This document shows positions 10,603 to 30,844 of a stretch of DNA of 30,844 nt, piece after piece. Under the pieces are notes generated by a model that saw only the letters and a list, made by a program, of their open reading frames with translations, had not been told where the DNA came from and made no database searches. The position numbers and the translations under genes were made by a program. Each line of letters starts with the position of its first letter. Position 1 is the first letter of the stretch. Source of the stretch: Candidatus Pacearchaeota archaeon UBA284 (GTDB taxonomy: Archaea > Nanobdellota > Nanobdellia > Pacearchaeales > UBA284); assembly GCA_002499185.1 (NCBI GenBank), contig DAKN01000010.1, positions 4,546 through 35,389 on the forward strand, in the 5' to 3' direction.

Positions 10603-10650
10603 AGCAATAGTCTTAATATTTATTTTGAATAGAAATTAACTTTTAACGGC

Positions 10651-10710: not shown

Positions 10711-11013
10711 TTTAATTTTTAATAAATTAGAGGTTACGGTATTTTTTCTTGAAGTATTCTTATAAAGACGTTTAAAATTATTTTTACCATATTTTTTTAT
10801 TAAAAATTTAGTAAATGATCCTGATTGGAGATATATAATAGTCGGCTTTATATTCTTCTAATTGTTATTATCGCAAAGATATTTAATGAGATAAAGATTG
10901 TTATTTTTGTACCAAGAGATGTTTTATTTGTATTCCATGTTTTTAATATACCATAAAGATAAATATTAAAAAAATAATCTAGTTATTGGTTATTTATAAT
11001 TAAGGATTATCAG

Positions 11014-11709: not shown

Positions 11710-11711
11710 AG

Positions 11712-14491: not shown

Positions 14492-14494
14492 TTA

Positions 14495-15772: not shown

Positions 15773-16713
15773 AGTGATATGCTATTTATGCCGTTTATTA
15801 TTACTTTTAATGTTTGCAAATCATCATCCATATTATAAGTTTTGTTAAGTATTTTTTCTATAGTTGATTTTAGCTGTAAGTAGTATAGTTCTTTTTCAGA
15901 AATATCTGTTTCATAAGATTTTTCAATGTCATTAATTCTCAAGACAAGTTTTTTTCTATTTAATAATAGCCTGCCATTTTTGTAATTAACTATAATTTCT
16001 TCTGATTTTGGCTCTATACAACTTACGTGAACTGTTCCATTTAATTTATTAATTATAATGGCTGCCGTGGCAGAGTGGTCTGTTTTGTAATCCCAAGGTC
16101 TTTTACCTCCAATTTCCCATTTTAATTTAATATGATCTATTGTTCCGATAAGCCATTGTAATACTGTTATTGTGTGCCATCCCATATTTATCCAACATCC
16201 CCCACCAGCGGCTTCAATGTCCCAATACCAACTATTTTTATTATCGTCTATTGTGAATGTATACGAAAAAAATAAAGGTGAACAAAGTTTATCAATTTCT
16301 TCTTTAGCTTTTAAAAATAAAGGATTATACTTTCTTTGTTGTAGTGTTGCAATAAATAAATTATGTTTTTTAGCAAGATTAATAATTTTTTTTCCATCTC
16401 GATACGTTAAGGCAAGGGGTTTTTCTTTAATGATATTTATCTTTCTATTTAAAGCTTCAATAGATATTTTTTCATGAAGATAGTTTGGAGTTGCAATAAT
16501 GACGATATCTAATTCTGTGGACAATAGTAATTCTTTATAATTTGTAAAAAAGGGCACACCCTTAATGGCGGCCCCAGCATTAGTATCGCAGATAGCGACT
16601 ATATTAACTATATTTTCTTTTTCTAATTCGAAAAGCGCCTCTAAGTGTTTTTTACCCTGGTTCCCTACTCCGATTAAGCCTATTCTCAATGGTTTATCAG
16701 TGGAATTTAACAT
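15769..16713 (-). CDS. Gfo/Idh/MocA-family oxidoreductase (first gene of sugar operon)
   Basis: 314 aa. RIGLIGVGNQGKKHLEAL, EKP motif IKEKPLALT. The -10 TATAAT (16720-16725) ends 6 nt before the ATG, so probably leaderless. Confidence 0.8.
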   Translation of the reverse strand: MLNSTDKPLRIGLIGVGNQGKKHLEALFELEKENIVNIVAICDTNAGAAIKGVPFFTNYKELLLSTELDIVIIATPNYLHEKISIEALNRKINIIKEKPLALTYRDGKKIINLAKKHNLFIATLQQRKYNPLFLKAKEEIDKLCSPLFFSYTFTIDDNKNSWYWDIEAAGGGCWINMGWHTITVLQWLIGTIDHIKLKWEIGGKRPWDYKTDHSATAAIIINKLNGTVHVSCIEPKSEEIIVNYKNGRLLLNRKKLVLRINDIEKSYETDISEKELYYLQLKSTIEKILNKTYNMDDDLQTLKVIINGINSISL

Positions 16714-16719
16714 GATGAT

Positions 16720-16748
16720 ATTATAATAATTTAAAAAAATTTGTCAAG
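16720..16748 (-). promoter_or_regulatory. sigma70-type promoter of the sugar operon (TTGACA-16-TATAAT), -10 abutting the ATG
   Basis: Minus-strand read TTGACAaatttttttaaattatTATAATatcatcATG. Confidence 0.5.
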
Positions 16749-16753
16749 CTATA

Positions 16754-16782
16754 TTGACAAAAATATACAAATAGTGCATAAT
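16754..16782 (+). promoter_or_regulatory. sigma70-type promoter TTGACA-17-CATAAT for the SPFH-like gene
   Basis: TTGACA (16754-16759), a 17-nt spacer, CATAAT (16777-16782). Its -35 is separated by 5 bp from the -35 of the divergent minus-strand promoter, forming the palindrome TTGTCAAgctataTTGACAA. Confidence 0.55.
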
Positions 16783-16872
16783 AATAGTGTTCTTTGGCGG
16801 AGCCAAAGGATATTACGTTTACGTAATTTGAATCCTTTACATTTAAATATTCAGTTTACAGGAGTGAAAGAA

Positions 16873-18174
16873 ATGGCAAGCGAGATAAAAAAAGATAATG
16901 TTGTTAAGGAAAACGAAAAGAAGGTTAACCAACTCGGACCATTTTTAGTTGGGCTGGGTGCAATTTTATTAGTAGTAATTTTTTCTATTTTTATTCTTCC
17001 CCACTTCATCGGTCTATTTGCAATAATTTTGTCGCCGATAATTATTTTAACGGTCGCATTTCTTGTTTTATGGTTTATCTGGGCACCGAATATGGTGATC
17101 GGAACATTTATCCCAGAAGGATATTGCGTAATAATAACCAGAGGACAAGAGGAGGGCCAATTCGTTAAGGCGATGATAAAATGGAAAGGATGTACTATTG
17201 ATGGCAAATACAATATTATCGAAATGAAGCCTGGAGAAAAAGAAATGGACTACGTTGGCTTCTGGAGCAGAAGCCATATTGGTATGAATTTTTATTTTTG
17301 GCCATTTGATAGGATCTTTGCGTATGACCTCAAATGGAAACAATTTACCCATGACGAGAAGGTTGTGGACAGAGATGAACATCTCTATCGCGTCCTTTTG
17401 AAGCCTTATGTCTATTACATCGACATTAAAAATGCCGAAGATAAGGACAAGGTACCTCAAAACATGGGTATTGTTGCAGAGATGAAGATAGTTAATCCCT
17501 ATAAGGCAACATTCAAGATTCAGAACTGGTATCGTGCAGTTTCCAATCTCATCATCGGAGACCTTCGTGACTTTATCAGAACCAAGTCCTATGAAGAGCT
17601 TATTAATTCTGAAAAGAGCAAAGACTCTTTAAATGATATGATATGGAAGCAGAGAATCGAGATTGGTTTGGCAAAAGAAATAGAAGAAAACTACGGAGTC
17701 AAAATTATTAAACTTACCGTTGTTGAGATAAGTCCAGCCGATCCGGAGTATTCCAGAGCCACACTGAGAAAAATTATTGCCGAGAAAAACAAAGCGGCAA
17801 TTGAAGTTGAAGCTGATGCTGAGGCAATCAAGAGATCCAAGGAAACTATGGGCTTGGCTACAAGGATGTTTCTTGACCATACTAAAATGAAAGAACAAAC
17901 CATGGTGGACCTCATTTCCAGCAATCCAGAAGAGTTTGAGAAAAAGTACGGCAAGATGTTCAATAAATGCCTTGACCTTGTTCAAAGGGAGATGGCACTT
18001 GCCAAAGGTCGGTTAATTGATGTAAGGACTGATACTGCTGGAATAAAAGGAGGAGATCCCCTACTTACACTGATTGCAGCCAACAGTATGTTCAATAATC
18101 AGTCTAGTGGTGGAAAGTCAACGTCTAAGAAAAGAAATAAAGACAATGACGATGAAGAGGAATGTCCATTCTAA
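16873..18174 (+). CDS. membrane-anchored SPFH (band 7/stomatin/flotillin-like) domain protein
   Basis: The track ORF begins at TTG 16741 inside the promoter. The likely true start is ATG 16873, preceded by AGGAGTGAAAGAA. Two N-terminal TM helices, then FIPEGYCVIITRGQEEGQFVKAM (SPFH-like core), and a C-terminal Ala/Glu-rich helix AEKNKAAIEVEADAEAIKRSKE. Confidence 0.5.
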   Translation: MASEIKKDNVVKENEKKVNQLGPFLVGLGAILLVVIFSIFILPHFIGLFAIILSPIIILTVAFLVLWFIWAPNMVIGTFIPEGYCVIITRGQEEGQFVKAMIKWKGCTIDGKYNIIEMKPGEKEMDYVGFWSRSHIGMNFYFWPFDRIFAYDLKWKQFTHDEKVVDRDEHLYRVLLKPYVYYIDIKNAEDKDKVPQNMGIVAEMKIVNPYKATFKIQNWYRAVSNLIIGDLRDFIRTKSYEELINSEKSKDSLNDMIWKQRIEIGLAKEIEENYGVKIIKLTVVEISPADPEYSRATLRKIIAEKNKAAIEVEADAEAIKRSKETMGLATRMFLDHTKMKEQTMVDLISSNPEEFEKKYGKMFNKCLDLVQREMALAKGRLIDVRTDTAGIKGGDPLLTLIAANSMFNNQSSGGKSTSKKRNKDNDDEEECPF

Positions 18175-18196
18175 ATAATGGAAACAGCCTCTTTTT

Positions 18197-18571
18197 TTAT
18201 TTCTTGTTTATTATCGTAGAGAATATAGACTTTTTGTTAATTTCAGCAGAATTTTCTTTTTCTTCTCTTCCCTCAATGTTATTTTCGGTAATAACTTCCT
18301 CTTCAGAAAGAACAGTTTTAATTTTTTCAGTAATTTCGATAGCCAAGTCTTCAGAAATTTGTAGTTTATCTTTTATTATTGGCTTTAAATTAGTCAACGA
18401 GATTTTTTCGTTAATTAAATTATTACAAATATCTATTAGGTAATCTAATCTATTTTTTTCAATATCACTAAATTCTTTTTCTTCCAAGTCAAAACAGTCA
18501 GTTACTCCAAGATTATTGGTTTTTATAAAATCAATAGCGGTATTTATTAAATCTATTTTTTTAGCAATCAT
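18197..18571 (-). CDS. hypothetical acidic protein (124 aa), co-transcribed downstream of the VirB6-like gene
   Basis: Starts 2 nt after the stop of the upstream gene. Glu/Asp/Ile-rich with no recognisable motif. Confidence 0.4.
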   Translation of the reverse strand: MIAKKIDLINTAIDFIKTNNLGVTDCFDLEEKEFSDIEKNRLDYLIDICNNLINEKISLTNLKPIIKDKLQISEDLAIEITEKIKTVLSEEEVITENNIEGREEKENSAEINKKSIFSTIINKK

Positions 18572-18573
18572 AA

Positions 18574-20649
18574 TTAATTTAATTTACCTGCCCATGCTTC
18601 ATTGGATAGATTTTCTATTGCTTGAGCCATTACTTTATCTTCTTTATTTGTGCTTGTTTTTAATGATGTAATTACATTTTTAACAGCTGTTCGATTTAAT
18701 TTATCTCTAGTGAAACCCCTTAAATCTTTAACATCAATAGTTGCAGTAGGAAGATGCTGTTTTATTAAATTAGCATAACCATTTTTAATGTTTTCTATGT
18801 CTTTTGCTGTTCCTTTTTTTAATTTTTCTTGTATTATTTTTATATTAGGGCCAGCAATAGATGATAAAATTTCAGGATTTAGATATGCTGAGGAATTTAT
18901 TATTTTTCCTCTTTCAGCTGGCGACATTGCTCCCATAACTTCAGAAGAGCTTTTGTTGATTAATTTTTGAGCATAATCTGGTCTAGCATTTGCAATATCT
19001 TTTATTTTAACATTAAATGTTTCGGCCCAATTTTTATTGCTAGCCAAATATTCTAATTCAGGTTTATCTAATTCTCCTCTTTTATTTAAAGCGTTAAAAG
19101 CAGCGGCTTTATCAATATTATTTGCTCTTGTTTCTGTTCCTGAAGTAGTGATTTTTTTAAGCTTATCATTAGAGAGATTTTCGAGTCTTTTCTGTGCCTC
19201 TTCAACTTCGCCGCTTATCTTAGCGTCGTATTCTCCACGTCTTGTAAAGCCGATGTTTTCTTTTATTTCAGATATTCTTTTGGCTGCTTTTTCTCTTCCC
19301 TCGGCTCCTAATCCTCCCATTGCTGCTCCGGTTAATCCTCCCATTGCTGCTCCTCTTATTCCAGCATCAGAATATCCTTGACTGATACCAGAAAGTCCGC
19401 CAACTGCGGCACCAGCAACCGTTCTTTTCCCTCCTTCAACCATCCATTCTCCGCCTGCTACCGCAGTTTCTTTTGCTTTACTTATAGCCCTGCCTCCAGT
19501 TCTTGCCCAAGCACCTTTGGCGAGACCCTCAACAGTCGAACCGATTTGTCCTCCCGCAGAGATAGAGATAAAGAATCCAGCGATTAAAATAATGAAGGGA
19601 GTAAGACACTTAATGGCTGAATTAACTAAGCTACCAATAATAGAGGTAAGACTTGTTGGATCAATAGTAAAGGTTATCGATGGAATTAGCATATTTGCGA
19701 GATAGATAGACATTCCAGCTGGTATTCCGATTACACACCATTGCATAAAACTTTCCCACCAGTCATCCCAATAAAGAACGCTGGGAAATATTTTTTTAAT
19801 ATAGTTTGACTGAGGAAATACTTTTGTTGCAAAAGCTATGGGAGAAGCTATTACTAATAGCCATAGAATTATAGATCTACCAAGAAAAAGTAATGCATAA
19901 AGAATGTAAATAAAGAAACTAATAAGGGCAAACATTAAAAATGCAAGTGATACAGCGAAAGAATTTAATATACTTAGAGTTGATGTTCCTATTGCATTGA
20001 CAAATTCTTTTTCTGCGACAGCTGTTACGGTAGTATTTATTCCTCCAGAAACAAAAGACTTTGTTAAAATATTTGATCCATCTATAATAAATCCACAAAT
20101 AATAGGGGTAAAATTAATCAAAAGAGCAATAATTATAAAATTGATTAAAGTTTTTTTAGCTTTATTTTCTTCTCTTCCTAATATTATGTTAATAGCTATA
20201 ATAACTAATCCAATAACTAATGCTGCGTTGGCTACGTTTCTTACTACTCCCCATCCAGTCGCTACAACTTTATTATATGTTTCACTTGCTGGATCAAAGT
20301 CTGTTGGACTTAGCCATGTTGATGTTGAATCTATAACCGTAGACAATATTACTTGTCCAAGATTTATAATTGTTGAACCAGCCATAGTTATCAGAGATCT
20401 AGCTGCTGTTATTATGCTATTGGTAATAACAGCGGTGGGGTTGTCAAGAAGATTATTAGTTGCATCTAATCCTAATAATTTTGAAATTTCAAGTGCTCCG
20501 GCTAATGGCCAAGTAGTAGGATTAGAAAGTAATAATATTTGAAGAGGATCAATAATATCTTCAGCAAAAACATTTCCCATTGGCGAAAGAAGAGTTAAAA
20601 AAATAAAAAGAGAACAAGCTATAATTTTTAATTTTTTAAAATTAAACAT
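18574..20649 (-). CDS. VirB6/TrbL-like polytopic membrane protein with Gly/Ala-rich C-terminal tail
   Basis: 691 aa. Signal peptide MFNFKKLKIIACSLFIFLTLLSPMGNVFA. A ~100-aa extracytoplasmic segment, then at least 5 TM helices in residues ~135-370 with a conserved-Trp loop (YWDDWWESFMQW). Then a ~320-aa hydrophilic tail containing GGLSGISQGYSDAGIRGAAMGGLTGAAMGGLGAEG and a 24-bp tandem duplication at ~19311-19358. Confidence 0.5.
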   Translation of the reverse strand: MFNFKKLKIIACSLFIFLTLLSPMGNVFAEDIIDPLQILLLSNPTTWPLAGALEISKLLGLDATNNLLDNPTAVITNSIITAARSLITMAGSTIINLGQVILSTVIDSTSTWLSPTDFDPASETYNKVVATGWGVVRNVANAALVIGLVIIAINIILGREENKAKKTLINFIIIALLINFTPIICGFIIDGSNILTKSFVSGGINTTVTAVAEKEFVNAIGTSTLSILNSFAVSLAFLMFALISFFIYILYALLFLGRSIILWLLVIASPIAFATKVFPQSNYIKKIFPSVLYWDDWWESFMQWCVIGIPAGMSIYLANMLIPSITFTIDPTSLTSIIGSLVNSAIKCLTPFIILIAGFFISISAGGQIGSTVEGLAKGAWARTGGRAISKAKETAVAGGEWMVEGGKRTVAGAAVGGLSGISQGYSDAGIRGAAMGGLTGAAMGGLGAEGREKAAKRISEIKENIGFTRRGEYDAKISGEVEEAQKRLENLSNDKLKKITTSGTETRANNIDKAAAFNALNKRGELDKPELEYLASNKNWAETFNVKIKDIANARPDYAQKLINKSSSEVMGAMSPAERGKIINSSAYLNPEILSSIAGPNIKIIQEKLKKGTAKDIENIKNGYANLIKQHLPTATIDVKDLRGFTRDKLNRTAVKNVITSLKTSTNKEDKVMAQAIENLSNEAWAGKLN

Positions 20650-20660
20650 ATTTTTATTAT

Positions 20661-20688
20661 ATTATAGCAACTTATTTTTATATGTAAA
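20661..20688 (-). promoter_or_regulatory. putative promoter of VirB6-like gene (TTTACA-16-TATAAT), -10 only 11 nt from ATG
   Basis: Minus-strand read TTTACAtataaaaataagttgcTATAATataataaaaatATG, with no SD. Confidence 0.4.
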
Positions 20689-20704
20689 TGCTGTTTACAA
20701 CAAA

Positions 20705-20739
20705 TAAAAAAACCGGGGATATTTTTAAATCGTCCCCGG
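20705..20739 (-). terminator. rho-independent terminator after small 2-TM gene copy 1
   Basis: Minus-strand read CCGGGGAcgatttaaaaataTCCCCGG followed by TTTTTTTATTT. The stop codon lies in the loop. Confidence 0.65.
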
Positions 20740-21027
20740 TCGTCGCGCATTCCCCATTGAGGGAGTGCGACGATAGTCGTATGCTCCTACCATTATTATC
20801 ACTACTCCAAAGATAATGATTATCATAGGAGTGGGCACTGAAGGAATTGCCGCTCTTGAAGTTCTTTGCTGTAAATCGTTTTCCAGTATTTTAGATGTTC
20901 TTTCAATGCCTGATGTGGTGGAAGCAGTAGATTTGTTGTCTTCAATCTGTGCAGTGTTCATGAATACGATACCGCCGATGACTGCGATTGCAATCCCGAT
21001 AATAATCAGAATGGTTGAGTTCTTCAT
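20725..21027 (-). CDS. small two-TM membrane protein, paralog copy 1 (true start MKNSTILI, not the TTG-initiated MRCLQ extension)
   Basis: ATG at 21027-21025 preceded by GAGGTG with a 7-nt spacer. Sequence MKNSTILIIIGIAIAVIGGIVFMNT, a polar linker, then a second TM IIIIFGVVIIMVGAY and an RR tail. The 5' ~130 nt are about 88 percent identical to 28758-28890. Confidence 0.6.
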   Translation of the reverse strand: MKNSTILIIIGIAIAVIGGIVFMNTAQIEDNKSTASTTSGIERTSKILENDLQQRTSRAAIPSVPTPMIIIIFGVVIIMVGAYDYRRTPSMGNARRPGTI

Positions 21028-21097
21028 TTGTAAACACCTCAATATGTAATTGTGATGAACTTTATAGTCTCTCCGAGGCTATTTAGGTTCTTTATAT

Positions 21098-21126
21098 ATT
21101 ATAATACCTATATTAAAATTTGTCAA
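21098..21126 (-). promoter_or_regulatory. consensus sigma70 promoter (TTGACA-17-TATAAT) for copy 1
   Basis: Minus-strand read cTTGACAaattttaatataggtatTATAATatat. Confidence 0.6.
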
Positions 21127-21165: not shown

Positions 21166-21501
21166 ATGTTTAATATTAAATTTACTCCCGAAACTTTTTT
21201 CATGCTTCCCTTCGCACTCGGACTTGATTTGATAGGAATTATTTTGGTTTGTTTCGGTTTAGATGATTTCGGAATAACAGATATCATCGGAATTGCATTT
21301 ATTAATACTTGGTTATTATTAAGAGGAAAAAAAGTTGTGCATCAACAAGGTAAAAAAGGAGCGATAAGTAGCATTAAAAAAGCTTTTACCGGCAAAACAA
21401 GTAAATTCTTTGCTGCACCGTTTCTAGAGTTGATTCCCTATGTAGGTTGTCTCCCCTTTTGGACAATATCGGTAATATTAAATTTAGACGAAGAACAATA
21501 A
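21166..21501 (+). CDS. small polytopic membrane protein (3 predicted TM), first gene of operon
   Basis: 111 aa. Hydrophobic segments FFMLPFALGLDLIGIILVCFGL, IIGIAFINTWLLL, FFAAPFLELIPYVGCLPFWTISVILNL, with a Lys-rich loop. Stops 2 nt before the next gene. Confidence 0.5.
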   Translation: MFNIKFTPETFFMLPFALGLDLIGIILVCFGLDDFGITDIIGIAFINTWLLLRGKKVVHQQGKKGAISSIKKAFTGKTSKFFAAPFLELIPYVGCLPFWTISVILNLDEEQ

Positions 21502-21502
21502 T

Positions 21503-24193
21503 ATGGCATTTTCAGAAGCTGTAATCTATCTCTTCAATTTTTCTCTGGGCATGGCCGCTGTTTTAGCTTTCATTGTTATCGTTGCCGCCGGAATAAAAAT
21601 GGTTGAATCGCGTGGTAATCCTTCGGAAACACAAGATGCCAAACAAAAAATCATTAATTCTCTTCTCGGTTTAACAATTCTCCTAACTTCATATATTCTT
21701 CTAACAACAATTAATCCCGATTTGGTAAAAATCGAGAATATTTCTTTGGGCACGACCGGAATAACTATCCCTATAATTACCCCAGGTGATAATCCGGAAG
21801 ATGCCAAGAATTATCAGTTTGAAGAAATACCGATCGGAACACTAACCGAAGCAATCTTAATTGGTACTTCATCAACCAAGAATAAGGTCCCCTGTTACGA
21901 ATACGAGCATGAAGCTTACGATGATGACGGCCAACTAATCATCGCTAATACGGTTGATAAAAACAAAGACGGAAAGATAACCGAAAAAGATATTATTCTT
22001 AACAAGGACATGTTCTATTGCATCAAACTTTTAGATGATGCGATTAAGAAAAAAATAGAAGTTCATTTGAATACTTTGGTTGCTGGACAAAAACAGTTGG
22101 ATGCTTTAATGAAAACTAACTGTACCTGCAAGAGAGCGTATTACAGCTATCTTCCTCCCAATAAAGAAGAATACAAAATTGAAGGAACAGACTGTTCCGA
22201 TACCGGTTGCTACAGAGGCACTACTTACTGTCAGTGTTGTGGAGGCGCTAAGACCGGCTGTTCAAGACTAGACCCGTACAACACTTCCTGCAGTTCTTCG
22301 TCTGCGAATCCCTGTGAAATTGTCGGATACAATAACGGTAAAGAAGTTAAACAGTATCAATACGATACTTGTGATAATAGATTAGCGATAGAATGCAAAA
22401 AACAGGAAATAAAACAATTGATGGACGGTACCAAGCCGGATCAAATTTGCTACGAAGAAGTCAACGGTGCTCCCCCATTAATAGAAAAGGAGCAACCGTT
22501 TAATCTTTTCACCATTAAGTTAGGAATCGAAAGATTGCAAGAATTCAAGGATTATTATGACGATGAAATCAAGGCGCTGGAAGAAGCAGAATTGAAAACA
22601 AAGGAATACGGAGAAAAGCTAACCTTAGCCGAAGTATATAATAATGTTCAAACAAAAGACGATGTTACTGTCGGTGTGAAAGAATTTGAAACCGAAGTCT
22701 ATTACAATATTTCCAGGTATTGCCGAACCGCTAACTGCACAAAATCAGGATATGATCCTAAGCTTGGATATGTTTGTCCGGAAGAAGACAATGAATACGA
22801 GATGAGCCTTAAAAAGAGGGTTTGCAGGATGGATGTAACAAAAGAAGATGTTGAATCTGGTGATGTTTTTGCCGCAAGCTGTGAAAAAGCAACCGGACTT
22901 TTCGAGCTTGATGCATGCAAGGAATTTTATTCATATGCCGGAGATCCAGCAACCTTCTATTACAGTGAAAAATACAATTCTGATTATAAGGGAGAAAATC
23001 AGGTAATCGACAGTAGTGATAATAAATGTAACCTTGAAACTCAGATTATTGAAAATGAAATGTACGGAGGAGTCATCCGTATCGGAGAAACGGTTGATTA
23101 TACTCAAGCCTGGGGCAAAGAAGTTTCAAGAAGGATAGAAAAGCTTAAAGAAGAAGTTCAGGGAATGTTTAATACGGGTATGGCCATATCTAATTTTCCC
23201 GACAGCTGCAGCGCCGGAAATTGTACAAACAGCAGTCCCGACAAATTGAATATTTGTACTCATCCGAAATGTGATTGCGAGGGCGATTGCTGTTGCGCTT
23301 CTGTTGAAGGAACATCTTGCCAGTCCTGCGAACCGGCTGAAACTGTTTGCGAGGATCCGGAAGAAGAATTAATGGACCAAATGGGACATGCGAGCACTTG
23401 TAACGAAAAAGAAACAAAGGCGTACGGAGGCTGCAGTACTTGTTGTGAAGGTATTTGTCCGGAAGTTCCCCTGCCCGAAGAAGACTACTGGACCTGCCCT
23501 TACAGAAACCTCTGTAATTTAATGAAGAATCTATACCAAAGAAGGTCCATTCAAAGGTCTTGCCTTGAAGAGACAGAAAACACCAATGAAGAGAAATCAA
23601 GAGAGATTATGGAGAGTAAGGTAGGATACGTTCAGAAGATGGAAATGAGAGAAGTGATATTATTCGAAATGGCCCAGGTTAAAGAGATAAAGGACGATGT
23701 AGAATATGAATATGTTTCGACCACAAACTTAATTAGTCTTGTCTGTCCCAGTTATTTGCTTTGGGATCTTACTCCTCTTACCTGTAACGTGAGCTTGAAT
23801 AAGAAGCTTAACATTGAAAAGAGGTTTGATTTGTTTGATATGCTTAAAGATTCAAGAGAAAGACTGAACGGATGTGTTAAAGGATATACTATTCCCTACA
23901 AGCAGACCGCCGATAACGTCAGAGTTTTGAGCTGTTACGAGGCTTCTAATACTTCTAATACCGGACTGGTTGTTATTCCCGAATTCCCCTTCCTTAAATT
24001 AGGAGACCCAGTAGACGAAGATATTGCTGAAGGAATCAAATATATTAATTGTTATCCTTACAATAGCGATAATTTAACCGACCAAGAAAAGGAAGTCTGT
24101 TTCTATAACATCAATCGTACGGGAACCGCAGAGAATCCGGGCTGTTTAACAATTACTAAAAATTATATGGATAATTATTATTGCTGCCAATAA
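21503..24193 (+). CDS. VirB2/TrbC-pilin-like N-terminal helical hairpin fused to ~800-aa cysteine-rich extracellular domain
   Basis: 896 aa. N-terminus AVLAFIVIVAAGIKMVESRGNPSETQDAKQKIINSLLGLTILLTSYILLTTINPDL is shared with the next two genes. About 50 Cys, including CQCCGG, KCDCEGDCCCAS, CSTCCEGICPE. An EF-hand-like loop DKNKDGKITEKD. Confidence 0.6.
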   Translation: MAFSEAVIYLFNFSLGMAAVLAFIVIVAAGIKMVESRGNPSETQDAKQKIINSLLGLTILLTSYILLTTINPDLVKIENISLGTTGITIPIITPGDNPEDAKNYQFEEIPIGTLTEAILIGTSSTKNKVPCYEYEHEAYDDDGQLIIANTVDKNKDGKITEKDIILNKDMFYCIKLLDDAIKKKIEVHLNTLVAGQKQLDALMKTNCTCKRAYYSYLPPNKEEYKIEGTDCSDTGCYRGTTYCQCCGGAKTGCSRLDPYNTSCSSSSANPCEIVGYNNGKEVKQYQYDTCDNRLAIECKKQEIKQLMDGTKPDQICYEEVNGAPPLIEKEQPFNLFTIKLGIERLQEFKDYYDDEIKALEEAELKTKEYGEKLTLAEVYNNVQTKDDVTVGVKEFETEVYYNISRYCRTANCTKSGYDPKLGYVCPEEDNEYEMSLKKRVCRMDVTKEDVESGDVFAASCEKATGLFELDACKEFYSYAGDPATFYYSEKYNSDYKGENQVIDSSDNKCNLETQIIENEMYGGVIRIGETVDYTQAWGKEVSRRIEKLKEEVQGMFNTGMAISNFPDSCSAGNCTNSSPDKLNICTHPKCDCEGDCCCASVEGTSCQSCEPAETVCEDPEEELMDQMGHASTCNEKETKAYGGCSTCCEGICPEVPLPEEDYWTCPYRNLCNLMKNLYQRRSIQRSCLEETENTNEEKSREIMESKVGYVQKMEMREVILFEMAQVKEIKDDVEYEYVSTTNLISLVCPSYLLWDLTPLTCNVSLNKKLNIEKRFDLFDMLKDSRERLNGCVKGYTIPYKQTADNVRVLSCYEASNTSNTGLVVIPEFPFLKLGDPVDEDIAEGIKYINCYPYNSDNLTDQEKEVCFYNINRTGTAENPGCLTITKNYMDNYYCCQ

Positions 24194-24194
24194 T

Positions 24195-25517
24195 ATGAAT
24201 ATTAAAACAATAATCACTACATTATTTTTATTTCTTATTGCTTTCCCTGCTTTGGCGGCGATGCAATATCCGGAAATCGGCGGGATAACAATTTCCGAAT
24301 CAACCACGGCTGCCCAATACATTGTTTATTTCTTTAATTTAGCGATTGCTCTAGGTGCTTTTGCCGCCGTTATCATGATGGTTATGGCCGGCATCGAATG
24401 GGTTACCGCTGCCGGAAATCCGAGCAAGATAGAATCATCTAAAGGAAAGATTGCCAATACCCTTTTCGGGGTAGCCGTCCTCGTTGGCTGTTATTTGATT
24501 CTTAATACTATTAATGACCAACTGCTTACCATTAAAATAGATGATTTGAAATGTGAACACGGTATAACAGTCTCAGTCAAACAGGCTTCCGATGATAAAG
24601 TAAAGCAGAAATGTATCGATGCGAGTCAGACAAATATCGAGGACACGATTATAAGCACTTTGAGCTGGAATTTTCCCGAAGATTATTTACTAAGAGTTTA
24701 TCTCTATTCTGAACCGGACTATAAAGGAACGATAACTCAAATTGATTGCAAGAATGGTCCTTGTGATGGGAGTATTTCCGGAGCAAAATCACTTTATTTT
24801 TTACTGAACAACGCCGGAATTTATTTGTATGACGACAACAGTTATACCCCGAGGGTAAAAAGTTATCCCCTTTTTACTTCGACCAGCATATCTGATTTAT
24901 CTAAAACAAATAGCTTTGATAATTTTACCAGGTCAATAGAAATAATTAATCCCGATCAAGACAAACAGCAGCTTCAATATTCCGCTATTGTTTTTAAAGA
25001 TCAAAACTATCAAGGAAGATGTGCTTTTGTCGGTCAGTCTGTTCCTGATATGGATACTGGATATAGCGGATATTACACTGATGCTATAGGAGATGATGAA
25101 ATTTCTTCAATTATTGTGGCAAAATCTAACTTAAACCAGGAAGCAATCAGCCAAAAGAGAGGAGAAATCATATTGTACACCAAGGTTAATTGTGGAAAAT
25201 CAGATACCGACCCAACTAAGCAAATCAAGGCTTGTCATATACCGATAACCAGTGTTGCCAGTGGTCAGGTGGATATTTCTGAAAGTTGTTCTAATTTTGA
25301 GTCTGGCGATGAAGTAATGTCTTTTGAAATCACTGGTGCAGCCGGATTAATTCTAAGTACTTCCAAGAAACAAGCGGGAGACGAAAAAACATACTGTATG
25401 TATTTCAATAAAGAATCTTTAGGAGGAGGAACCTGTTTGTCTTCAATATTGGATACCCATATCTTTACGGTCGGAGGAACGACCCCGCAATCATATATAA
25501 TCGTACCGGAAAACTAA
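24195..25517 (+). CDS. secreted/anchored paralog: signal peptide + VirB2/TrbC-like module + beta/gamma-crystallin-like (Greek-key) ectodomain
   Basis: 440 aa. Signal peptide ...FPALA|AMQYPEIGG. Module LGAFAAVIMMVMAGIEWVTAAGNPSKIESSKGKIANTLFGVAVLVGCYLILNTIN. Ectodomain motifs VYLYSEPDYKGTITQI, SAIVFKDQNYQGRCAFVG ... DDEISSIIVA. Confidence 0.6.
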   Translation: MNIKTIITTLFLFLIAFPALAAMQYPEIGGITISESTTAAQYIVYFFNLAIALGAFAAVIMMVMAGIEWVTAAGNPSKIESSKGKIANTLFGVAVLVGCYLILNTINDQLLTIKIDDLKCEHGITVSVKQASDDKVKQKCIDASQTNIEDTIISTLSWNFPEDYLLRVYLYSEPDYKGTITQIDCKNGPCDGSISGAKSLYFLLNNAGIYLYDDNSYTPRVKSYPLFTSTSISDLSKTNSFDNFTRSIEIINPDQDKQQLQYSAIVFKDQNYQGRCAFVGQSVPDMDTGYSGYYTDAIGDDEISSIIVAKSNLNQEAISQKRGEIILYTKVNCGKSDTDPTKQIKACHIPITSVASGQVDISESCSNFESGDEVMSFEITGAAGLILSTSKKQAGDEKTYCMYFNKESLGGGTCLSSILDTHIFTVGGTTPQSYIIVPEN

Positions 25518-25518
25518 A

Positions 25519-26625
25519 ATGAAAAATATTAAAACAATAATTTGTCTTTCTTTATTTGGAATATTATTCATCTCCCCTGTTTTGGCAGCAATACAATATC
25601 CGGAAATCGGTGGCGTTAATATTAATGAAGAAGGAACTTCAGCGGCCACCTACGTTGTTTATCTTTTTAATCTATCTATTGCGGCTGGAGCTTTTATTGC
25701 CGGAGCGGTTTTGTTTGCAGCCGGAATTGATTACGTTTCTGCTCGTGGAGAGCCGGCCAAGCTTGATAGCGCAAAAAACAAAATAAAGAATGCCTTTTTG
25801 GGATTAACGATCCTTCTCGCTGCTTTCATGATTTTAAACATTATCAATCCTCAATTAACGAGCATTAAAATCAGCCAATTGGAAAAAACACCGGAAAAGG
25901 AAATAGTCATTCCCGAGGGTTCTGGTATTTATTTATATGATTTAACTAATTACGCTTCCAGTGAAAATGAAGAGCCGGTAAGGGTTACTAAAACCATGGG
26001 GGGCTTTTTAGAAAGCAATTTTAGTAATAAAGCTGAATCAATTAAATTCAATAATCCGACTGAAGAATTCAGCTTCGGCGCCGTTCTTTACGCTGCCAAA
26101 GAAGACAGTACTGAAGGTTCTGGCTCTGATTTAAGAGGAAATTGTTCGTATACACTCAGTAATGTTCCTGACTTAGACGTTGCGGTTAACGACAAGGAAA
26201 ACTATCCTCCGATTGGCCGGGATAAGCTGGCTTCAATGCTTGTTTTTAAAACTGATGGTGGTTCGGGAAGTATCAAGATTTATAATACTATTAATTGCAA
26301 AGACAGGACCGATGAATACGGGGTAACCTGTAAAAAGAAGAAATACGATGATTGCGAGATTACTGGTGGCAGCGGATTCAAAAATCTTAAAGAAGCTTGT
26401 CCTGATTTCAAGGGAGACATCATGTCGATAGAAGCCGGAGACAGTTTGGGTATATTATTCAAAGCCACAGGTGCTCAGGAAGCTGGAAGATGTCACTACA
26501 TTGAAACCAATGATACTGGCTGTGTTAATGTGGTTAAATACAGCTATGTTTTTAATATCAACGACAAGAAATACGAATCTAATTTTACCCCCAAATCTTT
26601 TGTAATCTTTTCTTTAGTAAAGTAA
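25519..26625 (+). CDS. secreted/anchored paralog: signal peptide + VirB2/TrbC-like module + divergent ectodomain
   Basis: 368 aa. Signal peptide ...SPVLA|AIQYPEIGG. Module AGAFIAGAVLFAAGIDYVSARGEPAKLDSAKNKIKNAFLGLTILLAAFMILNIINPQL. Shares SGIYLYD..NY with the previous gene. Its 3' end overlaps the convergent ksgA remnant by 41 nt. Confidence 0.6.
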   Translation: MKNIKTIICLSLFGILFISPVLAAIQYPEIGGVNINEEGTSAATYVVYLFNLSIAAGAFIAGAVLFAAGIDYVSARGEPAKLDSAKNKIKNAFLGLTILLAAFMILNIINPQLTSIKISQLEKTPEKEIVIPEGSGIYLYDLTNYASSENEEPVRVTKTMGGFLESNFSNKAESIKFNNPTEEFSFGAVLYAAKEDSTEGSGSDLRGNCSYTLSNVPDLDVAVNDKENYPPIGRDKLASMLVFKTDGGSGSIKIYNTINCKDRTDEYGVTCKKKKYDDCEITGGSGFKNLKEACPDFKGDIMSIEAGDSLGILFKATGAQEAGRCHYIETNDTGCVNVVKYSYVFNINDKKYESNFTPKSFVIFSLVK

Positions 26626-27535: not shown

Positions 27536-28654
27536 GTGGGATTTTTAATAGAAACCCTGCAACTCTGGATTATTCTTATTCAAAAAAAAATTAAGAAAAC
27601 TATCGGCAGAATCGGTAAAAAAAGGCTCTTTTTGGCCTTTTTCGTCCTTTTTTGCGTCTGGGGTAATGTTTTCCTTAATCAGGATATAAACACCTCTAAA
27701 ACGAGCGTTTCTAAGCTTCAGAATAGCTTCTTGAGTCTTGAATCAGCCTTCCAACCGATTACCAACAATCTAATCTTTGAACAGGGAAAAATCCTATCAG
27801 CTTTGCCCTCTCCCCTGTTTGTTTCATCAGAGACCTTGGGGTCTTTGTTTGATGAAGAGACAGCCAGCAAAGATATTATTAAACACATCGTGGAAAAAGG
27901 AGAAACCTTGTCTTCAATCGCTGAGTTGTACAATATTTCAATTGAAACCCTTCTCTTGGCTAACGAATTGGATACCACCAAAATCCAACCCGGCCAAGAG
28001 CTTTTAATTTTACCGGTTAACGGCATTATTCACATGGTGGAAAAAGGAGAAACTATTGCCGCCATTGCCAAGACATATAGTGCTGACAAAGAAGAGATTA
28101 TCAGCTATAACAGTCTATCTTCTTCTGGAGAAGTATATATCGGAGATGTTTTGATTATTCCTAACGGCAAGATGCCCAAACAGTCTACCCCGACAACCAA
28201 TACCACAACTCAAAGCTATGCCCAGGTTGTTTTACCGAATTCTTATTTAATTGTTCCGACAGTAGGAACGATTACTCAGGGAGCTCATTATTCATACAGT
28301 TCCAGCGGAAAGGCTTATTATACAGCAGTAGATATTTCTAATGCGATTGGAACGCCGGTAGTGGCGGCTGCAGGAGGACAGATACAGATTGCCAAGAATA
28401 AATGGCCTTACGGAAACTATATTACTATTCTTCACCCGAATGGAGTGGTAACTCTTTATGCCCATCTAAGTTTTATTGCTAGAGGAATAGAATCAGGAGT
28501 GACTGTTTCTCAGGGACAAGTTATCGGATATATGGGTAATACCGGCCGAACCGTCAGAGGAGTGGGAGGAACCGGATCTCATTTACACTTTGAAACCAGA
28601 GGTGCAGCTAATCCGCTAACCGCTTACGGACGAGGCAGCAAGATTTCTTACTAA
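27536..28654 (+). CDS. LysM-LysM-M23 family peptidoglycan endopeptidase
   Basis: 372 aa. The start is uncertain: the ORF begins at GTG with no SD, and the N-terminal signal anchor is KKRLFLAFFVLFCVWGNVF. Two LysM repeats (HIVEKGETLSSIAELYNISIETLLLAN, HMVEKGETIAAIAKTYSADKEEIISYN). M23 domain YTAVDI...GTPVVAAAGG...ILHPNGVVTLYAHLSF...GYMGNTGR...GSHLHFE. Confidence 0.8.
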   Translation: MGFLIETLQLWIILIQKKIKKTIGRIGKKRLFLAFFVLFCVWGNVFLNQDINTSKTSVSKLQNSFLSLESAFQPITNNLIFEQGKILSALPSPLFVSSETLGSLFDEETASKDIIKHIVEKGETLSSIAELYNISIETLLLANELDTTKIQPGQELLILPVNGIIHMVEKGETIAAIAKTYSADKEEIISYNSLSSSGEVYIGDVLIIPNGKMPKQSTPTTNTTTQSYAQVVLPNSYLIVPTVGTITQGAHYSYSSSGKAYYTAVDISNAIGTPVVAAAGGQIQIAKNKWPYGNYITILHPNGVVTLYAHLSFIARGIESGVTVSQGQVIGYMGNTGRTVRGVGGTGSHLHFETRGAANPLTAYGRGSKISY

Positions 28655-28700: not shown

Positions 28701-28729
28701 TTGACATAATAATTAATATATATTATAAT
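28701..28729 (+). promoter_or_regulatory. perfect consensus sigma70 promoter TTGACA-17-TATAAT for copy 2
   Basis: TTGACA (28701-28706), 17-nt spacer, TATAAT (28724-28729). About a 58-nt leader with GAGGTG 7 nt before the ATG. Confidence 0.65.
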
Positions 28730-28787
28730 AAGAATCAATAATCTTAAAAGGTTATCAAGCTCATTACAATTATTGAGGTGTTTAAAA

Positions 28788-29075
28788 ATGAAGAACTCAA
28801 CCATTCTGATTGTTGCCGGGATCGTAATCATGGTCATCGGCGGTATCGTATTTATGAATACGTTTGCGGAAACGCAAAAGAAAACTATTAATGCTGATCA
28901 TCCTCTAAATAAATTAATAGAAAAACAAAAGCAGATGATGAAGATTGATGAGCCTAAAAATAATCCTTTCGTTTTTCCTCTCATAATAATTATGTTTGGA
29001 GTAGGATTAATTGGAGTTGGATTCTTCAGTTCTCGTCGTGCGTCCTCAACCGAACAAGAAAAATCACCGAGATAA
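28788..29075 (+). CDS. small two-TM membrane protein, paralog copy 2 (true start MKNSTILI)
   Basis: 95 aa. MKNSTILIVAGIVIMVIGGIVFMNT, a polar linker, then a second TM LIIIMFGVGLIGVGFF and an RR tail. The TTG-initiated MRCLK extension in the track was rejected. Confidence 0.6.
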   Translation: MKNSTILIVAGIVIMVIGGIVFMNTFAETQKKTINADHPLNKLIEKQKQMMKIDEPKNNPFVFPLIIIMFGVGLIGVGFFSSRRASSTEQEKSPR

Positions 29076-29102: not shown

Positions 29103-29136
29103 ATAAAAAAGAAAGGGTTATTCCCCTTCTTTTTTG
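29103..29136. terminator. bidirectional terminator hairpin between convergent genes
   Basis: AAGGG-ttattc-CCCTT, flanked by aaaaaagaaa upstream and cttttttg downstream. It overlaps the stop of the DksA/TraR gene. Confidence 0.45.
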
Positions 29137-29513
29137 CAGTTACATTCGTTGTTTTTGCAGTTGCAAGTATTACAGGTTTTAGCTTCGGGTAAGGCAATCA
29201 ATCTTTCTTCTGGTATTTCGCATTCGCAGCCTGGGCATCCGCAGTCGCATTTGCCATATGTCCCCTGCTCTATCTTCTCTAAGGCCAGGTTCACATCTCT
29301 TAGACTTTCTTCTAAAGAATGTTCAACCGGTAAAAGATTTTCATATTCCTCTACCTCATCAACTTTATCTTCCGGAGTGTCGGTAAGTTGAGGGAATTCT
29401 GTTTGCCAATTATCTTCACTGGTTTTCTTGGCAAAAGTCTTTAATTGTTCTTCGATGCTTGCTTTCTTTTTCTCTAAATCTTCTTTTCTTTGAGCGATAA
29501 ATTCTGGTGTCAT
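29118..29513 (-). CDS. DksA/TraR-family C4-type zinc-finger protein with extra Cys-rich tail
   Basis: 131 aa. N-terminal coiled coil, then LEKIEQGTYGKCDCGCPGCECEIPEERLIALPEAKTCNTC (DksA/TraR C4 signature), followed by the additional tail NCKNNECNCKKEGE. Confidence 0.65.
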   Translation of the reverse strand: MTPEFIAQRKEDLEKKKASIEEQLKTFAKKTSEDNWQTEFPQLTDTPEDKVDEVEEYENLLPVEHSLEESLRDVNLALEKIEQGTYGKCDCGCPGCECEIPEERLIALPEAKTCNTCNCKNNECNCKKEGE

Positions 29514-29622: not shown

Positions 29623-30844
29623 TTATTTTATCTTCTGTTCAATGCTTATTAACTCGTCCTTGATTTGTCTAATCTGGGCTGAAACTTCCTGGTACTTTTC
29701 TTTAATGATTTTTCTGGTTGTTTCAAAGTCCCTTACCTTATCCTCTATTTCCCAGCGATCTTTCTCTAGGGCTCTTCTTTTTTCTTCGTTAGTTCTTCTT
29801 CTTAATTCGATATCTCTTAAAATAACCTCATCGGTTGTTTCGCCTTGTCTTCTTTCGAGAATCTTGATCTCGTCTTCGGTGGCTTTTTCCTTTAAGGCAA
29901 TATCGGCCAGCATTTTGTCTGACTTGTCTCTCTGCTTGGTATTCTCAAACATTTCTTTTTTAATATCTTCAACCGACTGATTTAATGGTTTCAATCTTTC
30001 TTCCAAATCTTTTTTTGTTCTTCCGAGAACAATTCTGTTTTTGTCTCTCTTTAATACTTCTAGCTGTTGAAGAGTGTCTTTTTCTTTTGCCATTACTTTT
30101 TCTGCATTCAAATCGCACTCCCTTATCTGAAGTCTTAATGATTTGATTTCATCTTCTTTTTCGTACTTTTCTTTTTCAATATTATTTCTTTCGTCTTCTA
30201 CTCTCCACCTTTCTTTTTCGACAGCTCTTTTTTCTTCCGGTGTCTTGGCCAGACCTTCTTTTTCTTCCAGGTCTTTCTTTATCTCATCGGCTCTTAACTT
30301 TTTTTCAAGAACCAATTCCAATTTTTTTTTAATATTTTCTATTTCTTCTTCAATCTCTTTTTTTCTTTGTTCGAAAGGAGCCTTTTCTTCATTTACATCC
30401 TTTAAAGCTTCTTCTAATTCAAGAGTTTGTTCATCAATTCTGGCTAATTTTTCTTCATTTTCATCAATCGCCACTAACTCTTCTTCTTTTTGTTTCGCTT
30501 CTTCTAGGCCCAACTCTTCGGCACTGGGAATTCTTTCTGCTTCTTCTAATCCCAATTCTTTTGCGCTGGGTATTTTTTCCGGTATTTCCAATTCAAGCTC
30601 TTTCTCAATTGGAGTAGGTTCTTCTTCAATAGGTAAAGTCTCGGGAATTTGTTCTTCCAATGGTTTTTCCGGTTCAGGTTCTGGCTCTGGTTCAGGTTCT
30701 GGAGGATTCATAAAGGCGACCGGAGCTTCTTCGGTTGGAGCAACCGGTCCTTTCTCTTCAATCACCTGTTTTACATTATCCTCGCTTTTGTTTGTTGAGA
30801 GAGCTAGTTCGTAAGCAAAATCCTCGGCTTTTTTAGTTTCTTCT
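29623..30844 (-). CDS. E/K-rich coiled-coil protein with (PE)n tract; 5' end beyond window
   Basis: The track ORF starts at GTG 30765, but the frame stays open upstream to the window edge (…EETKKAEDFAYELALSTNKSEDNVKQVIEEKGPV…). Contains PEPEPEPEPEPE, repeated EELGLEEA units, and two EEKRxxEKxRWxxED…QIRxxxxE modules. Confidence 0.5.
   Translation of the reverse strand, partial: EETKKAEDFAYELALSTNKSEDNVKQVIEEKGPVAPTEEAPVAFMNPPEPEPEPEPEPEKPLEEQIPETLPIEEEPTPIEKELELEIPEKIPSAKELGLEEAERIPSAEELGLEEAKQKEEELVAIDENEEKLARIDEQTLELEEALKDVNEEKAPFEQRKKEIEEEIENIKKKLELVLEKKLRADEIKKDLEEKEGLAKTPEEKRAVEKERWRVEDERNNIEKEKYEKEDEIKSLRLQIRECDLNAEKVMAKEKDTLQQLEVLKRDKNRIVLGRTKKDLEERLKPLNQSVEDIKKEMFENTKQRDKSDKMLADIALKEKATEDEIKILERRQGETTDEVILRDIELRRRTNEEKRRALEKDRWEIEDKVRDFETTRKIIKEKYQEVSAQIRQIKDELISIEQKIK

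Follow-up and report, generated by a model that had tools for sequence, protein, structure and literature searches.

Patescibacteria encode a type IV secretion system (T4SS) whose VirB4, PrgI and VirB6 genes are found, together with arrays of 2-11 VirB2-like genes, near dnaA and ksgA (PMC12102498). The members of these VirB2 arrays share on average 25% identity and have been proposed to serve variation (PMC12102498), and Ca. Southlakia epibionticum depends on its pilin array as an essential component (PMC10633639). A review regards the system as the first T4SS of Gram-positive type with a possible capacity for pilus formation (PMC12857230); the main survey states for the phylum that 'No adhesins such as PrgB were detected' (PMC12102498). 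In addition, T4SS-pilin-domain proteins were among the most highly expressed extracellular unknowns in co-cultures of Minisyncoccaceae, which parasitise methanogens, and Kuroda et al. 2024 call PF18895-type domains adhesion-related and list PF18895 on genes of ~410 aa in their annotation table (PMC10936435). Here, we analyzed a 30,844-nt stretch of contig DAKN01000010.1 (the window; all coordinates are window positions) carrying an operon that encodes three paralogous proteins of 896, 440 and 368 aa, in which a pilin-like N-terminal module is fused to a large C-terminal domain.

A sequence-only reading of this DNA had interpreted the shared module as T4SS pilin-like, had found no described family to which the proteins could belong, and had suggested that they may form a new surface appendage or adhesin system. 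Our results indicate that the pilin interpretation was essentially right, and that the system is a known one: the operon is part of the Patescibacterial T4SS locus whose 'VirB2 arrays' have been described before (PMC12102498; PMC10633639; reviewed in PMC12857230), and the module corresponds to a known Pfam family, PF18895, with orthologues already named 'pilin'. Our preferred explanation, held with about even confidence, is that the operon encodes three specialised and non-redundant modular pilins, acting as minor or tip subunits of a Patescibacterial (Paceibacteria/Minisyncoccales-type) T4SS and displaying Ca-dependent contact domains.

The operon comprises four genes on the forward strand. 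The first of their open reading frames (ORFs) encodes a 111-aa membrane protein (21166..21501, +) and is followed by the 896-aa (21503..24193, +), 440-aa (24195..25517, +) and 368-aa (25519..26625, +) modular pilins. The count of four genes in the sequence-only reading stood, but its 2-nt gaps did not, as the junctions are of the form TAA-N-ATG and hence 1 nt long; because only one base separates each stop codon from the next ATG, the four genes are translationally coupled. The 896-aa protein consists of a hairpin (aa 1-72), a variable, low-confidence linker (aa 73-98) and a cysteine-rich ectodomain of ~800 aa. In the 440-aa protein, a signal peptide (aa 1-~23) and the xQYPEIGG motif precede the two helices (aa 39-71 and 76-106) and an all-beta ectodomain (aa ~120-440), and the 368-aa protein is built alike, with a signal peptide, IQYPEIGG, a hairpin at aa ~45-118 and an ectodomain at aa ~135-368. 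The ratios of non-synonymous to synonymous substitution rates (dN/dS), computed against strain L003, whose proteins are ~93% identical, were 0.038, 0.059 and 0.034 for the 896-, 440- and 368-aa genes, respectively, compared with 0.039 for pheS and 0.026 for the M23 peptidase gene of the same locus. Since these values are low and similar to that of pheS, the three large ORFs are real genes under strong purifying selection. The 111-aa gene gave a dN/dS of 0.13 in the same comparison.

The sharing of a module by the last three proteins was borne out by BLASTP, which delimited a two-helix module of ~80 aa (896 versus 440 aa, expect value (E) 1e-16; 896 versus 368 aa, E 2e-15; 440 versus 368 aa, E 3e-31 with 53% identity across 120 aa). 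The window modules are mutually 34-53% identical, and a six-frame scan of the window with a module profile recovered exactly three copies and no others. Two hydrophobic helices, a GNPSK/GEPAK loop, an AKxKI stretch and an INP/IND ending, the elements recognised by the sequence-only reading, could all be confirmed and are kept in 36 and 43 orthologues, respectively. Likewise, the 440- and 368-aa proteins start with a signal-peptide-like helix leading to A-x-A, followed by xQYPEIGG, as had been described; the leader is an ordinary Sec-type signal peptide of ~23 aa and not the long VirB2-style leader that had been assumed. The 896-aa protein is devoid of a signal peptide: it starts four residues ahead of helix 1, and its stop-to-stop ORF is too short to accommodate a leader.

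The hydropathy scan and the helices of the AlphaFold2 (AF2) models (39-71/76-106; 3-35/40-70) agree on two transmembrane (TM) helices around a short loop, GNPSKIESSKGKI, which is basic. According to the positive-inside rule, and given the signal peptide, both termini of the hairpin would be placed outside the cell. QYPEIGG is the local form of a family-wide L(N/E)YPxIxG motif, which can be seen by eye in most of the best-scoring short pilins displayed, a strict regular expression matching 26 of 120.

With regard to described families, the three proteins match PF18895 T4SS_pilin at sub-threshold scores (24.2, 24.0 and, for the 368-aa protein, 22.9 bits; E 3.5e-5 to 9.1e-5), and two of them match the NCBIfam model NF045849 'Mbov_0395 family pilin-like conjugal transfer protein' (E 6.5e-5 and, for the 368-aa protein, 6.7e-4) with 22.5 and 19.3 bits, compared to a family cut-off of 40 bits. 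Among the homologues, 51 of the 440-aa and 43 of the 896-aa protein, most carry PF18895 in precomputed annotations, and the orthologues held at NCBI, which stem from Paceibacterota/Minisyncoccales metagenome-assembled genomes, bear the name 'pilin'. Using a profile built from 21 window-type modules (A3), we retrieved 298 proteins, the best 120 of which are stand-alone pilins of 84-144 aa (E 2.4e-25 to 3e-13), and four of these 120 also carry PF04956 TrbC/VirB2. The 25 short pilins that were compared share one layout: a signal peptide, L(N/E)YPxIxG, helix 1, SAGNPSK, DAKDRI, helix 2 and TINPDLV, followed by only 5-15 more residues. The window modules show this PF18895 family layout, with the 896-aa protein lacking only the signal peptide and YPxIxG. 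Because the short pilins have the identical layout, the window proteins can be described as whole canonical Patescibacterial pilins with an ectodomain attached right after INPxL.

To TrbC/VirB2 itself the connection is transitive and runs through the short pilins. A profile-profile comparison (hhalign) of A3 with six short pilins (A7) gave a probability of 99.5% (E 3.5e-22 over 76 columns); all six match both PF18895 and PF04956 at E <= 0.01, and one of them, P0139, exceeds the TrbC cut-off (29.7 versus 27.9 bits). Homology of the module to bona fide TrbC/VirB2 members is thus indicated by way of these intermediates. Taken together, PF18895, NF045849, the 'pilin' names at NCBI and the hhalign alignment to TrbC-positive short pilins uphold the view of the module as T4SS pilin-like; of the profile comparison that the sequence-only reading had suggested, the part concerning PF18895 and TrbC-positive short pilins came out in favour of it, but a direct match to PF04956 was not obtained.

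The second line of evidence is the genomic neighbourhood. In the related loci L001-L004 and L087, the left side consists of genes for an SPFH protein, a small protein, a polytopic protein of 655-717 aa and a two-TM protein of ~105 aa. Divergent from these are the genes for a membrane protein of ~110 aa, a giant pilin of 813-896 aa, a pilin of ~440-466 aa and a pilin of ~345-368 aa, and the pilins are followed by rsmA, LysM-M23, a DksA/TraR zinc finger, a coiled-coil protein, pnp and rpsO. In two distant relatives, L005 and L006, the pilin operon adjoins VirB6-like, PrgI/VirB3-like, TraC-like (PF26593) and VirB4 (DUF87/AAA_10/P-loop_TraG) genes, and these T4SS genes are located beside jag, yidC and rnpA, with dnaA also adjacent in L005. 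Similarly, a VirB4 search of the 93%-identical strain returned the same 154-kb contig that carries the pilin operon; this contig encodes pheS, pheT, a 158-aa ORF, a 141-aa PrgI-like and a 210-aa TraC-like protein, VirB4, jag, yidC, rnpA, dnaA and dnaN, with the T4SS core ~8 kb from the VirB6-like gene.

Within the window itself, the only T4SS core gene is VirB6-like. It encodes a 691-aa polytopic protein of the VirB6/TrbL-like ('extended VirB6') type (18574..20649, -), with ~6-7 hydrophobic segments in the N-terminal 370 aa and a hydrophilic C-terminal half, and its orthologue sits between the pilin operon and the PrgI/TraC-like/VirB4 genes in L005 and L006. Precomputed annotations assign PF19590 TrbL_3 (E <= 1e-5 class) to the identical protein in L087 and to the orthologues in L001-L003 and L005. 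In our local Pfam scan no TrbL match was found for the protein and its orthologues (six orthologues, even at E 0.1), nor was one found with NCBIfam or PDB profiles, so that two Pfam annotation sources disagree on TrbL_3 for this protein family. The designation as VirB6-like is based on the precomputed TrbL_3 annotation and on synteny.

The hydrolase gene downstream of the pilins encodes a LysM-LysM-Peptidase_M23 protein (27536..28654, +; LysM E 1.2e-24, Peptidase_M23 E 2e-24) and keeps its position in all relatives. M23/LysM-bearing VirB1 homologues and possible substitute hydrolases have been reported in Patescibacteria (PMC12102498), and the enzyme is a candidate for a VirB1-type wall-opening function. 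The linkage that the sequence-only reading had drawn between the operon, its VirB6/TrbL-like neighbour and the M23 hydrolase proved correct in so far as both genes are part of the same conserved locus.

A small, canonical pilin gene is found in this locus as well. A TrbC/T4SS_pilin gene coding for 132-141 aa is located beyond rpsO in L001, L002 and L087, where the fetched DNA extends that far. In the near-identical strain L087, whose VirB6-like and 440-aa proteins are identical to those of the window, the 141-aa gene (19003-19428, -, in L087) lies ~7.6 kb downstream of the operon, corresponding to ~2.4 kb past the right end of the window. Its counterparts in L001 (20443-20847) and L006 (22301-22675) also adjoin rpsO/pnp; these pilins measure 124-141 aa, carry both PF04956 and PF18895, and have a Cys-rich mature N-terminus, EECPECDTLVCCGNEGQAPC.

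The third line of evidence comes from the ectodomains. The sequence-only reading had regarded the C-terminal domains as entirely different from one another. This holds for the ectodomain of the 896-aa protein, which is unrelated to the other two, but not for those of the 440- and 368-aa proteins, which are homologous (24% identity over 252 aa, E 2e-15), the 368-aa ectodomain matching the last two beta domains of the 440-aa protein without its first beta domain (alignment A1). The AF2 model of the 440-aa protein (36 sequences) reached a pLDDT of ~90 across the all-beta residues 120-440, and both ectodomains have the double Greek-key beta-sandwich fold that defines the betagamma-crystallin superfamily. 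Signatures of the form Y/F/W-x-x-x-x-Y/F-x-G are present in the 440-aa protein as YSEPDYKG (171) and FKDQNYQG (267) and are conserved in A1. The microbial betagamma-crystallin Ca2+ motif N/D-N/D-x-x-S/T-S was found by regular expression in its canonical form, DDEISS (aa 300-305; 25092..25109, +); it is conserved across A1 as xGD[DN]xISSII, with S304 and S305 invariant or nearly so, and may well bind Ca2+, while a second site, DNFTRS (242-247), is degenerate. No match to the Pfam family Crystall was obtained for the ectodomains, the PDB profile search was empty too, and Inhibitor_I36, which has a betagamma fold, was the sole faint Pfam match (E 0.2).

For the 896-aa protein, the AF2 model (43 sequences) was confident, with a pLDDT of 81.5 and a pTM of 0.80, and the modelled ectodomain of ~800 aa had no structural relative in the PDB. 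The protein contains 50 cysteines, many of them invariant, and an EF-hand-type Ca2+ loop, DKNKDGKITEKD (aa 152-163; 21956..21991, +), which follows the pattern D-x-N-x-D-G-x-I-x-x-x-D and in which D152, N154, D156, G157, I159 and D163 are invariant or nearly so (alignment A2). The Pfam family EF-hand_1 matches weakly at this position (aa 150-163, E 0.16), and the loop is a probable calcium-binding site. The ectodomains are probably extracellular, in view of their even cysteine counts (50 in the 896-aa protein, 10 and 8 in the others), of their Ca motifs and of the signal peptides.

In general, the module is the most conserved part of these proteins, the ectodomains are intermediate and the linker is the most variable (for P0058, identities were 76% in the module, 64% in the linker and 60-62% in the ectodomain). 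We also considered the ectodomains as fast-evolving host-range determinants and rejected this at the strain level, their dN/dS being 0.03-0.05 and the constraint on them matching that on the modules; at greater depth, they evolve only moderately faster than the module.

The breadth of the family bears on what the module does. An exhaustive HMMER search of 1.84 billion cluster representatives (50% identity clusters) identified 53,700 clusters with the module at E <= 1e-3 (12,342 at E <= 1e-10). Among the 139 newly listed best representatives, 79 contain at least two modules, 52 have a single N-terminal module with a C-extension of at least 100 aa, and five are short; as sorting by score brings multi-copy proteins and relatives of the query to the top, these counts are not population frequencies. 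The 52 C-extensions form 7 BLAST clusters, and most match one of the two ectodomain families described above. Ten long family members showed no Pfam domain besides PF18895, and one homologue, P0051, combines PF18895 with PF03734, which we take to be the YkuD L,D-transpeptidase family. It follows that long, cargo-bearing 'pilins' occur widely in metagenomes, where they already go by that label. Further architectures were observed in P0226 (1147 aa), with ~11 tandem pilin modules, in P0235 (1775 aa), with up to 17 matched stretches, in P0215, in which a unit of one module and a domain of ~250 aa occurs three times, and in P0219, which has three modules and a C-terminal domain.

The size and diversity of this family raise the question of whether the pilin-like hairpin is a mere membrane anchor, reused in Patescibacteria as a generic two-helix insertion unit by which structural, wall-associated or enzymatic surface proteins are held at the cytoplasmic membrane. 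The three proteins would then stay in the membrane and enter no filament, their betagamma-crystallin and Cys-rich heads forming a Ca2+-dependent surface layer comparable to that of Protein S on Myxococcus spores. A protein such as P0226 or P0215, or a fusion such as that of P0051, would be readily understood in these terms, and so would the bulky ectodomains, which are sterically awkward in a filament, together with the lack of an observed T4SS pilus in the phylum. A plain anchor, on the other hand, needs hydrophobicity only, yet the GNPSK/AKxKI loop and the INPDL end are retained by paralogues with 30-50% identity elsewhere, conservation of the module exceeds that of the ectodomains, and the operon stays beside VirB6-like, PrgI and VirB4 genes across the deep divergence represented by L005 and L006. 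Moreover, the outer-surface termini in VirB2/TraA pili would leave room for C-terminal cargo, and even for concatenated subunits. On balance, we regard the anchor explanation, the main alternative, as possible, though clearly short of probable.

Across the six loci examined, each of the three pilin types has a single orthologue and their order is unchanged, at identities as low as ~30%, and the orthologue of the 111-aa gene (108-121 aa) is always immediately 5' of the giant pilin in these six loci. This favours the array being a fixed triad of three non-redundant subunits that are probably made together, and not a variation cassette. The alternative of a variation set, in which interchangeable heads on a common pilin stalk would broaden host range or evade defence in a manner comparable to the VirB2 paralogues of Bartonella/Anaplasma, follows from the proposal made for the 2-11-gene VirB2 arrays with their average identity of 25% (PMC12102498) and is in line with the divergence of the window modules and the different sizes of the ectodomains. 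Such a set is difficult to reconcile with the constant order and single orthologues, with dN/dS values of 0.03-0.06 that are as low as that of pheS and show no excess in the ectodomains, and with the 1-nt spacers and translational coupling, which imply co-expression rather than alternation; in addition, no switching element is present inside the operon, and the sole inverted repeat brackets a whole 7.7-kb block. We consider this alternative unlikely.

We also weighed whether the three proteins could be cargo or effectors that the T4SS delivers into or onto the host, as pore-forming or host-modifying proteins whose hairpin inserts in the host membrane. The Patescibacterial T4SS has no relaxase and is believed to transport proteins or to have a different function (PMC10633639, PMC12102498), insertion of a helical hairpin in a target membrane is conceivable, and the giant ectodomain matches no known fold. 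Sec signal peptides, however, are present on two of the three proteins, and all of them are homologous to ordinary pilins over the whole module, which argues for Sec-dependent insertion in the membrane of the producer itself; the Pfam/NCBIfam scans brought up neither toxin nor enzyme domains, and proteins with betagamma-crystallin domains are typically extracellular, with structural, Ca-binding or adhesive roles. A role as effectors is accordingly very unlikely.

Returning to the modular pilins, these results suggest a model in which the hairpin would be inserted in the membrane with its basic loop on the cytoplasmic side and both termini outside, as is the case for VirB2/TraA, which would place the C-terminal domain outside the cell. 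As the conserved neighbourhood suggests, the VirB6-like, VirB3/PrgI-like and VirB4 machinery would treat these hairpins like an ordinary pilin. Because the bulky heads could not sit on every subunit of a compact filament, the large pilins would reach the surface as the minor or tip components of a short pilus or stalk, for which the canonical 141-aa TrbC-like pilin encoded downstream might provide the bulk subunit. Judging from their folds and motifs, the Ca2+-stabilised betagamma-crystallin heads of the 440- and 368-aa proteins may contact the host-cell surface, and the disulfide-rich ~800-aa EF-hand-loop domain of the 896-aa protein may do so as well; the ectodomains would thereby fill the role of VirB5 or of a PrgB-type adhesin, neither of which has been found in the phylum, and the LysM-M23 hydrolase would open the wall locally. 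A stronger version, according to which the three proteins are the first recognised modular VirB2-type pilins and their pilin-adhesin fusions constitute the host-recognition device of Paceibacteria that parasitise archaea or bacteria, replacing VirB5/PrgB, is put forward only tentatively. In this version, a monoderm T4SS would build a pilus or stalk with the three fusions at its tip or surface, two of them with Ca2+-binding betagamma-crystallin heads and one with a disulfide-rich head of ~800 aa whose fold would be new.

Several observations weigh against the modular pilin model. All three proteins fall slightly under the PF18895 gathering score of 26.6 bits, none of them has a direct PF04956 match at E <= 1, and no sequence match to solved VirB2/TraA pilin structures was found. 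VirB4 is not encoded in the window, where VirD4 was also looked for and none was present. The tandem copies in single polypeptides and the enzyme fusions fit a general membrane-anchor role as well as they fit a pilin, and the small downstream pilin is of a different subtype from the modules of the large proteins, lacking the INPDLV ending. To our knowledge, there is no Patescibacterium in which a T4SS pilus has been imaged, and polymerisation of the window proteins finds no support in this analysis of their sequences. Finally, a VirB2-type filament would hardly accommodate a domain of 250-800 aa on every subunit, so that sub-stoichiometric or tip incorporation would be needed.

The 111-aa protein encoded by the first gene of the operon is hydrophobic at about residues 9-46 and 86-107 and contains two conserved motifs, GLDDFG and PYxGxxPFWT (alignment A5); it gave zero Pfam or NCBIfam matches. 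Its assignment as VirB3 was ruled out, as the relatives have a separate PrgI/VirB3 gene.

On the far side of the VirB6-like gene, the window encodes an SPFH/Band_7 membrane protein (16741-18174, +; Band_7 E 3.2e-10) and a 124-aa protein (18197-18571, -), a conserved neighbour; both genes are kept between the VirB4 half of the locus and the VirB6-like gene in L003, L005, L006 and L087. Between the VirB6-like gene and the operon lies the gene for a 105-aa two-TM protein, transcribed away from the pilins (20725..21042, -), with an orthologue at the equivalent position in the relatives, and a 100-aa two-TM paralogue of it (44% identical, E 4e-22) is encoded on the far side of the hydrolase gene (28773..29075, +). 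A perfect TTGACA-17-TATAAT sequence is located on the minus strand (21126-21098). The promoter and terminator scans yielded counts not above those of shuffled sequence and gave no information on the operon on the forward strand.

The 5' ends of the 105- and 100-aa genes form a 91-nt inverted repeat (arms 20954-21044 and 28771-28861, 88% complementary), which brackets the 7.7-kb block containing the pilin operon, rsmA and LysM-M23. A second repeat of 30 nt (21097-21126 and 28701-28730) carries matching TTGACA...TATAAT promoter-like sites. The inverted repeat could reflect gene conversion or could permit inversion of the block.

Comparison with L003 further revealed a sharp mosaic boundary (window 16741-21042 versus L003 2553-6847): the pilins, pheS, M23 and the DksA-like protein are 93-97% identical, whereas identity drops to 50.8% in the VirB6-like protein (dN/dS 0.48), to 50% in the 105-aa TM protein and to 31% in the SPFH protein. 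The pattern is suggestive of allele replacement in the VirB6-side block, or of its rapid evolution, next to a pilin operon that remains constant.

The remaining left part of the window encodes CYTH, HAD, aminotransferase, aldolase, FkbM methyltransferase and pheST genes, and beyond pheT the window holds unrelated metabolic genes. Between pheS and SPFH, a low-GC island (25-28%; ~9100-16713) carries genes for Ham1, an AstE/AspA-like protein, HAD, two GFO/IDH/MocA oxidoreductases, NUDIX, ATP-grasp and a DegT/DnrJ aminotransferase, a content that suggests sugar or cell-surface glycan modification. The island is absent from the 93%-identical L003; at least its right end (ATP-grasp, DegT, GFO oxidoreductase) is present in L087.

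To the right of the operon, a 131-aa DksA/TraR-type C4 zinc-finger protein (29118-29513, -; weak Pfam match, E 0.003) and an E/K-rich, highly charged coiled-coil protein (29623-30765, -; 380 aa in the window, ~480 aa in relatives) are encoded. Both genes are found 3' of M23 in every relative and may belong to the same locus.

The T4SS is the only machine for which an essential part in the epibiotic life of a cultured Patescibacterium has been demonstrated. If the fusions are surface-displayed parts of it, they represent testable host-contact candidates in Paceibacteria/Minisyncoccales, where the main survey found no adhesin. These results also imply that the 'VirB2 arrays' of the phylum are not uniform, some being fixed sets of specialised subunits and not variation cassettes, and they bring to light a conserved and confidently modelled ectodomain of ~800 aa without a structural relative in the PDB. 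Should the modular pilin model be true, polypeptides with ~11 concatenated modules would hint at T4SS filaments made of covalently linked or cargo-bearing subunits; should the hairpin instead be a plain anchor, the blanket 'pilin' annotation would have to be corrected for a large share of a very large family.

Literature searches for long or modular T4SS pilins gave no description of large ectodomains fused to a pilin. Relative to the searchable literature, the architecture of a pilin with a large ectodomain, the conserved triad with its 111-aa partner, the betagamma-crystallin heads and the large ectodomain lacking a PDB structural relative are new.

Compared with known systems, the operon is closest to the Patescibacterial VirB2-like arrays (Wang et al. 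2023, PMC10633639; Quinonero-Coronel et al. 2025, PMC12102498), with which it shares the protein family and the tandem arrangement of paralogous pilin genes, as well as a locus comprising VirB4, PrgI/VirB3, VirB6-like, rsmA/ksgA and dnaA genes in a monoderm host without VirB5 or PrgB. Unlike in those arrays, every member of the window array bears a folded ectodomain of 250-800 aa, and the array is a fixed, ancient triad behind a conserved 111-aa membrane protein, with the small canonical pilin encoded elsewhere in the locus.

With TrbC/VirB2/TraA (PF04956), the window proteins have in common the Sec signal peptide, two hydrophobic helices around a basic loop, a predicted topology with both ends outside, and the linkage of the gene to VirB3/VirB4/VirB6, which are adjacent in L005 and L006 and on the same contig in the 93%-identical strain. 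In the structures of F and T pili, both termini of VirB2/TraA are located on the outer surface, and VirB5 is located at T-pilus tips, a position parallel to the one proposed here for the large pilins. The window proteins differ from these pilins in their ordinary leader, in showing no sign of cyclisation or acetylation, in their monoderm envelope and in their size, being 3-8 times larger than TrbC/VirB2 (~7-12 kDa mature) owing to the C-terminal ectodomains. The weak hairpin matches to NF045849, from an integrative and conjugative element of Mycoplasma, point to a pilin-like two-helix protein of a monoderm MPF-FATA-type system; unlike the Mycoplasma proteins, which measure ~80 aa and have no ectodomain, the window proteins are large, and their scores are far under the family cut-off. 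Microbial betagamma-crystallins (Protein S, spherulin 3a, clostrillin, the Flavobacterium 3hzb 'carbohydrate binding protein' and DdCAD-1) differ from the window ectodomains in that the latter are appended to a T4SS pilin hairpin.

A comparable working principle is encountered in modular type IV pilins, such as PilB/PilC of Streptococcus sanguinis, and in large-headed minor pseudopilins such as GspK of the GspI-J-K tip complex, in which a filament module carries a grafted adhesive or capping domain. The tips of type II/IV filaments likewise consist of a small fixed set of distinct minor subunits that are encoded together and sit on a separate major pilin. In type IV pilins there is only one helix, at the N-terminus, maturation involves a prepilin peptidase, and PilB-type ATPases provide the drive; the likeness to the window proteins is therefore one of working principle only and implies no homology.

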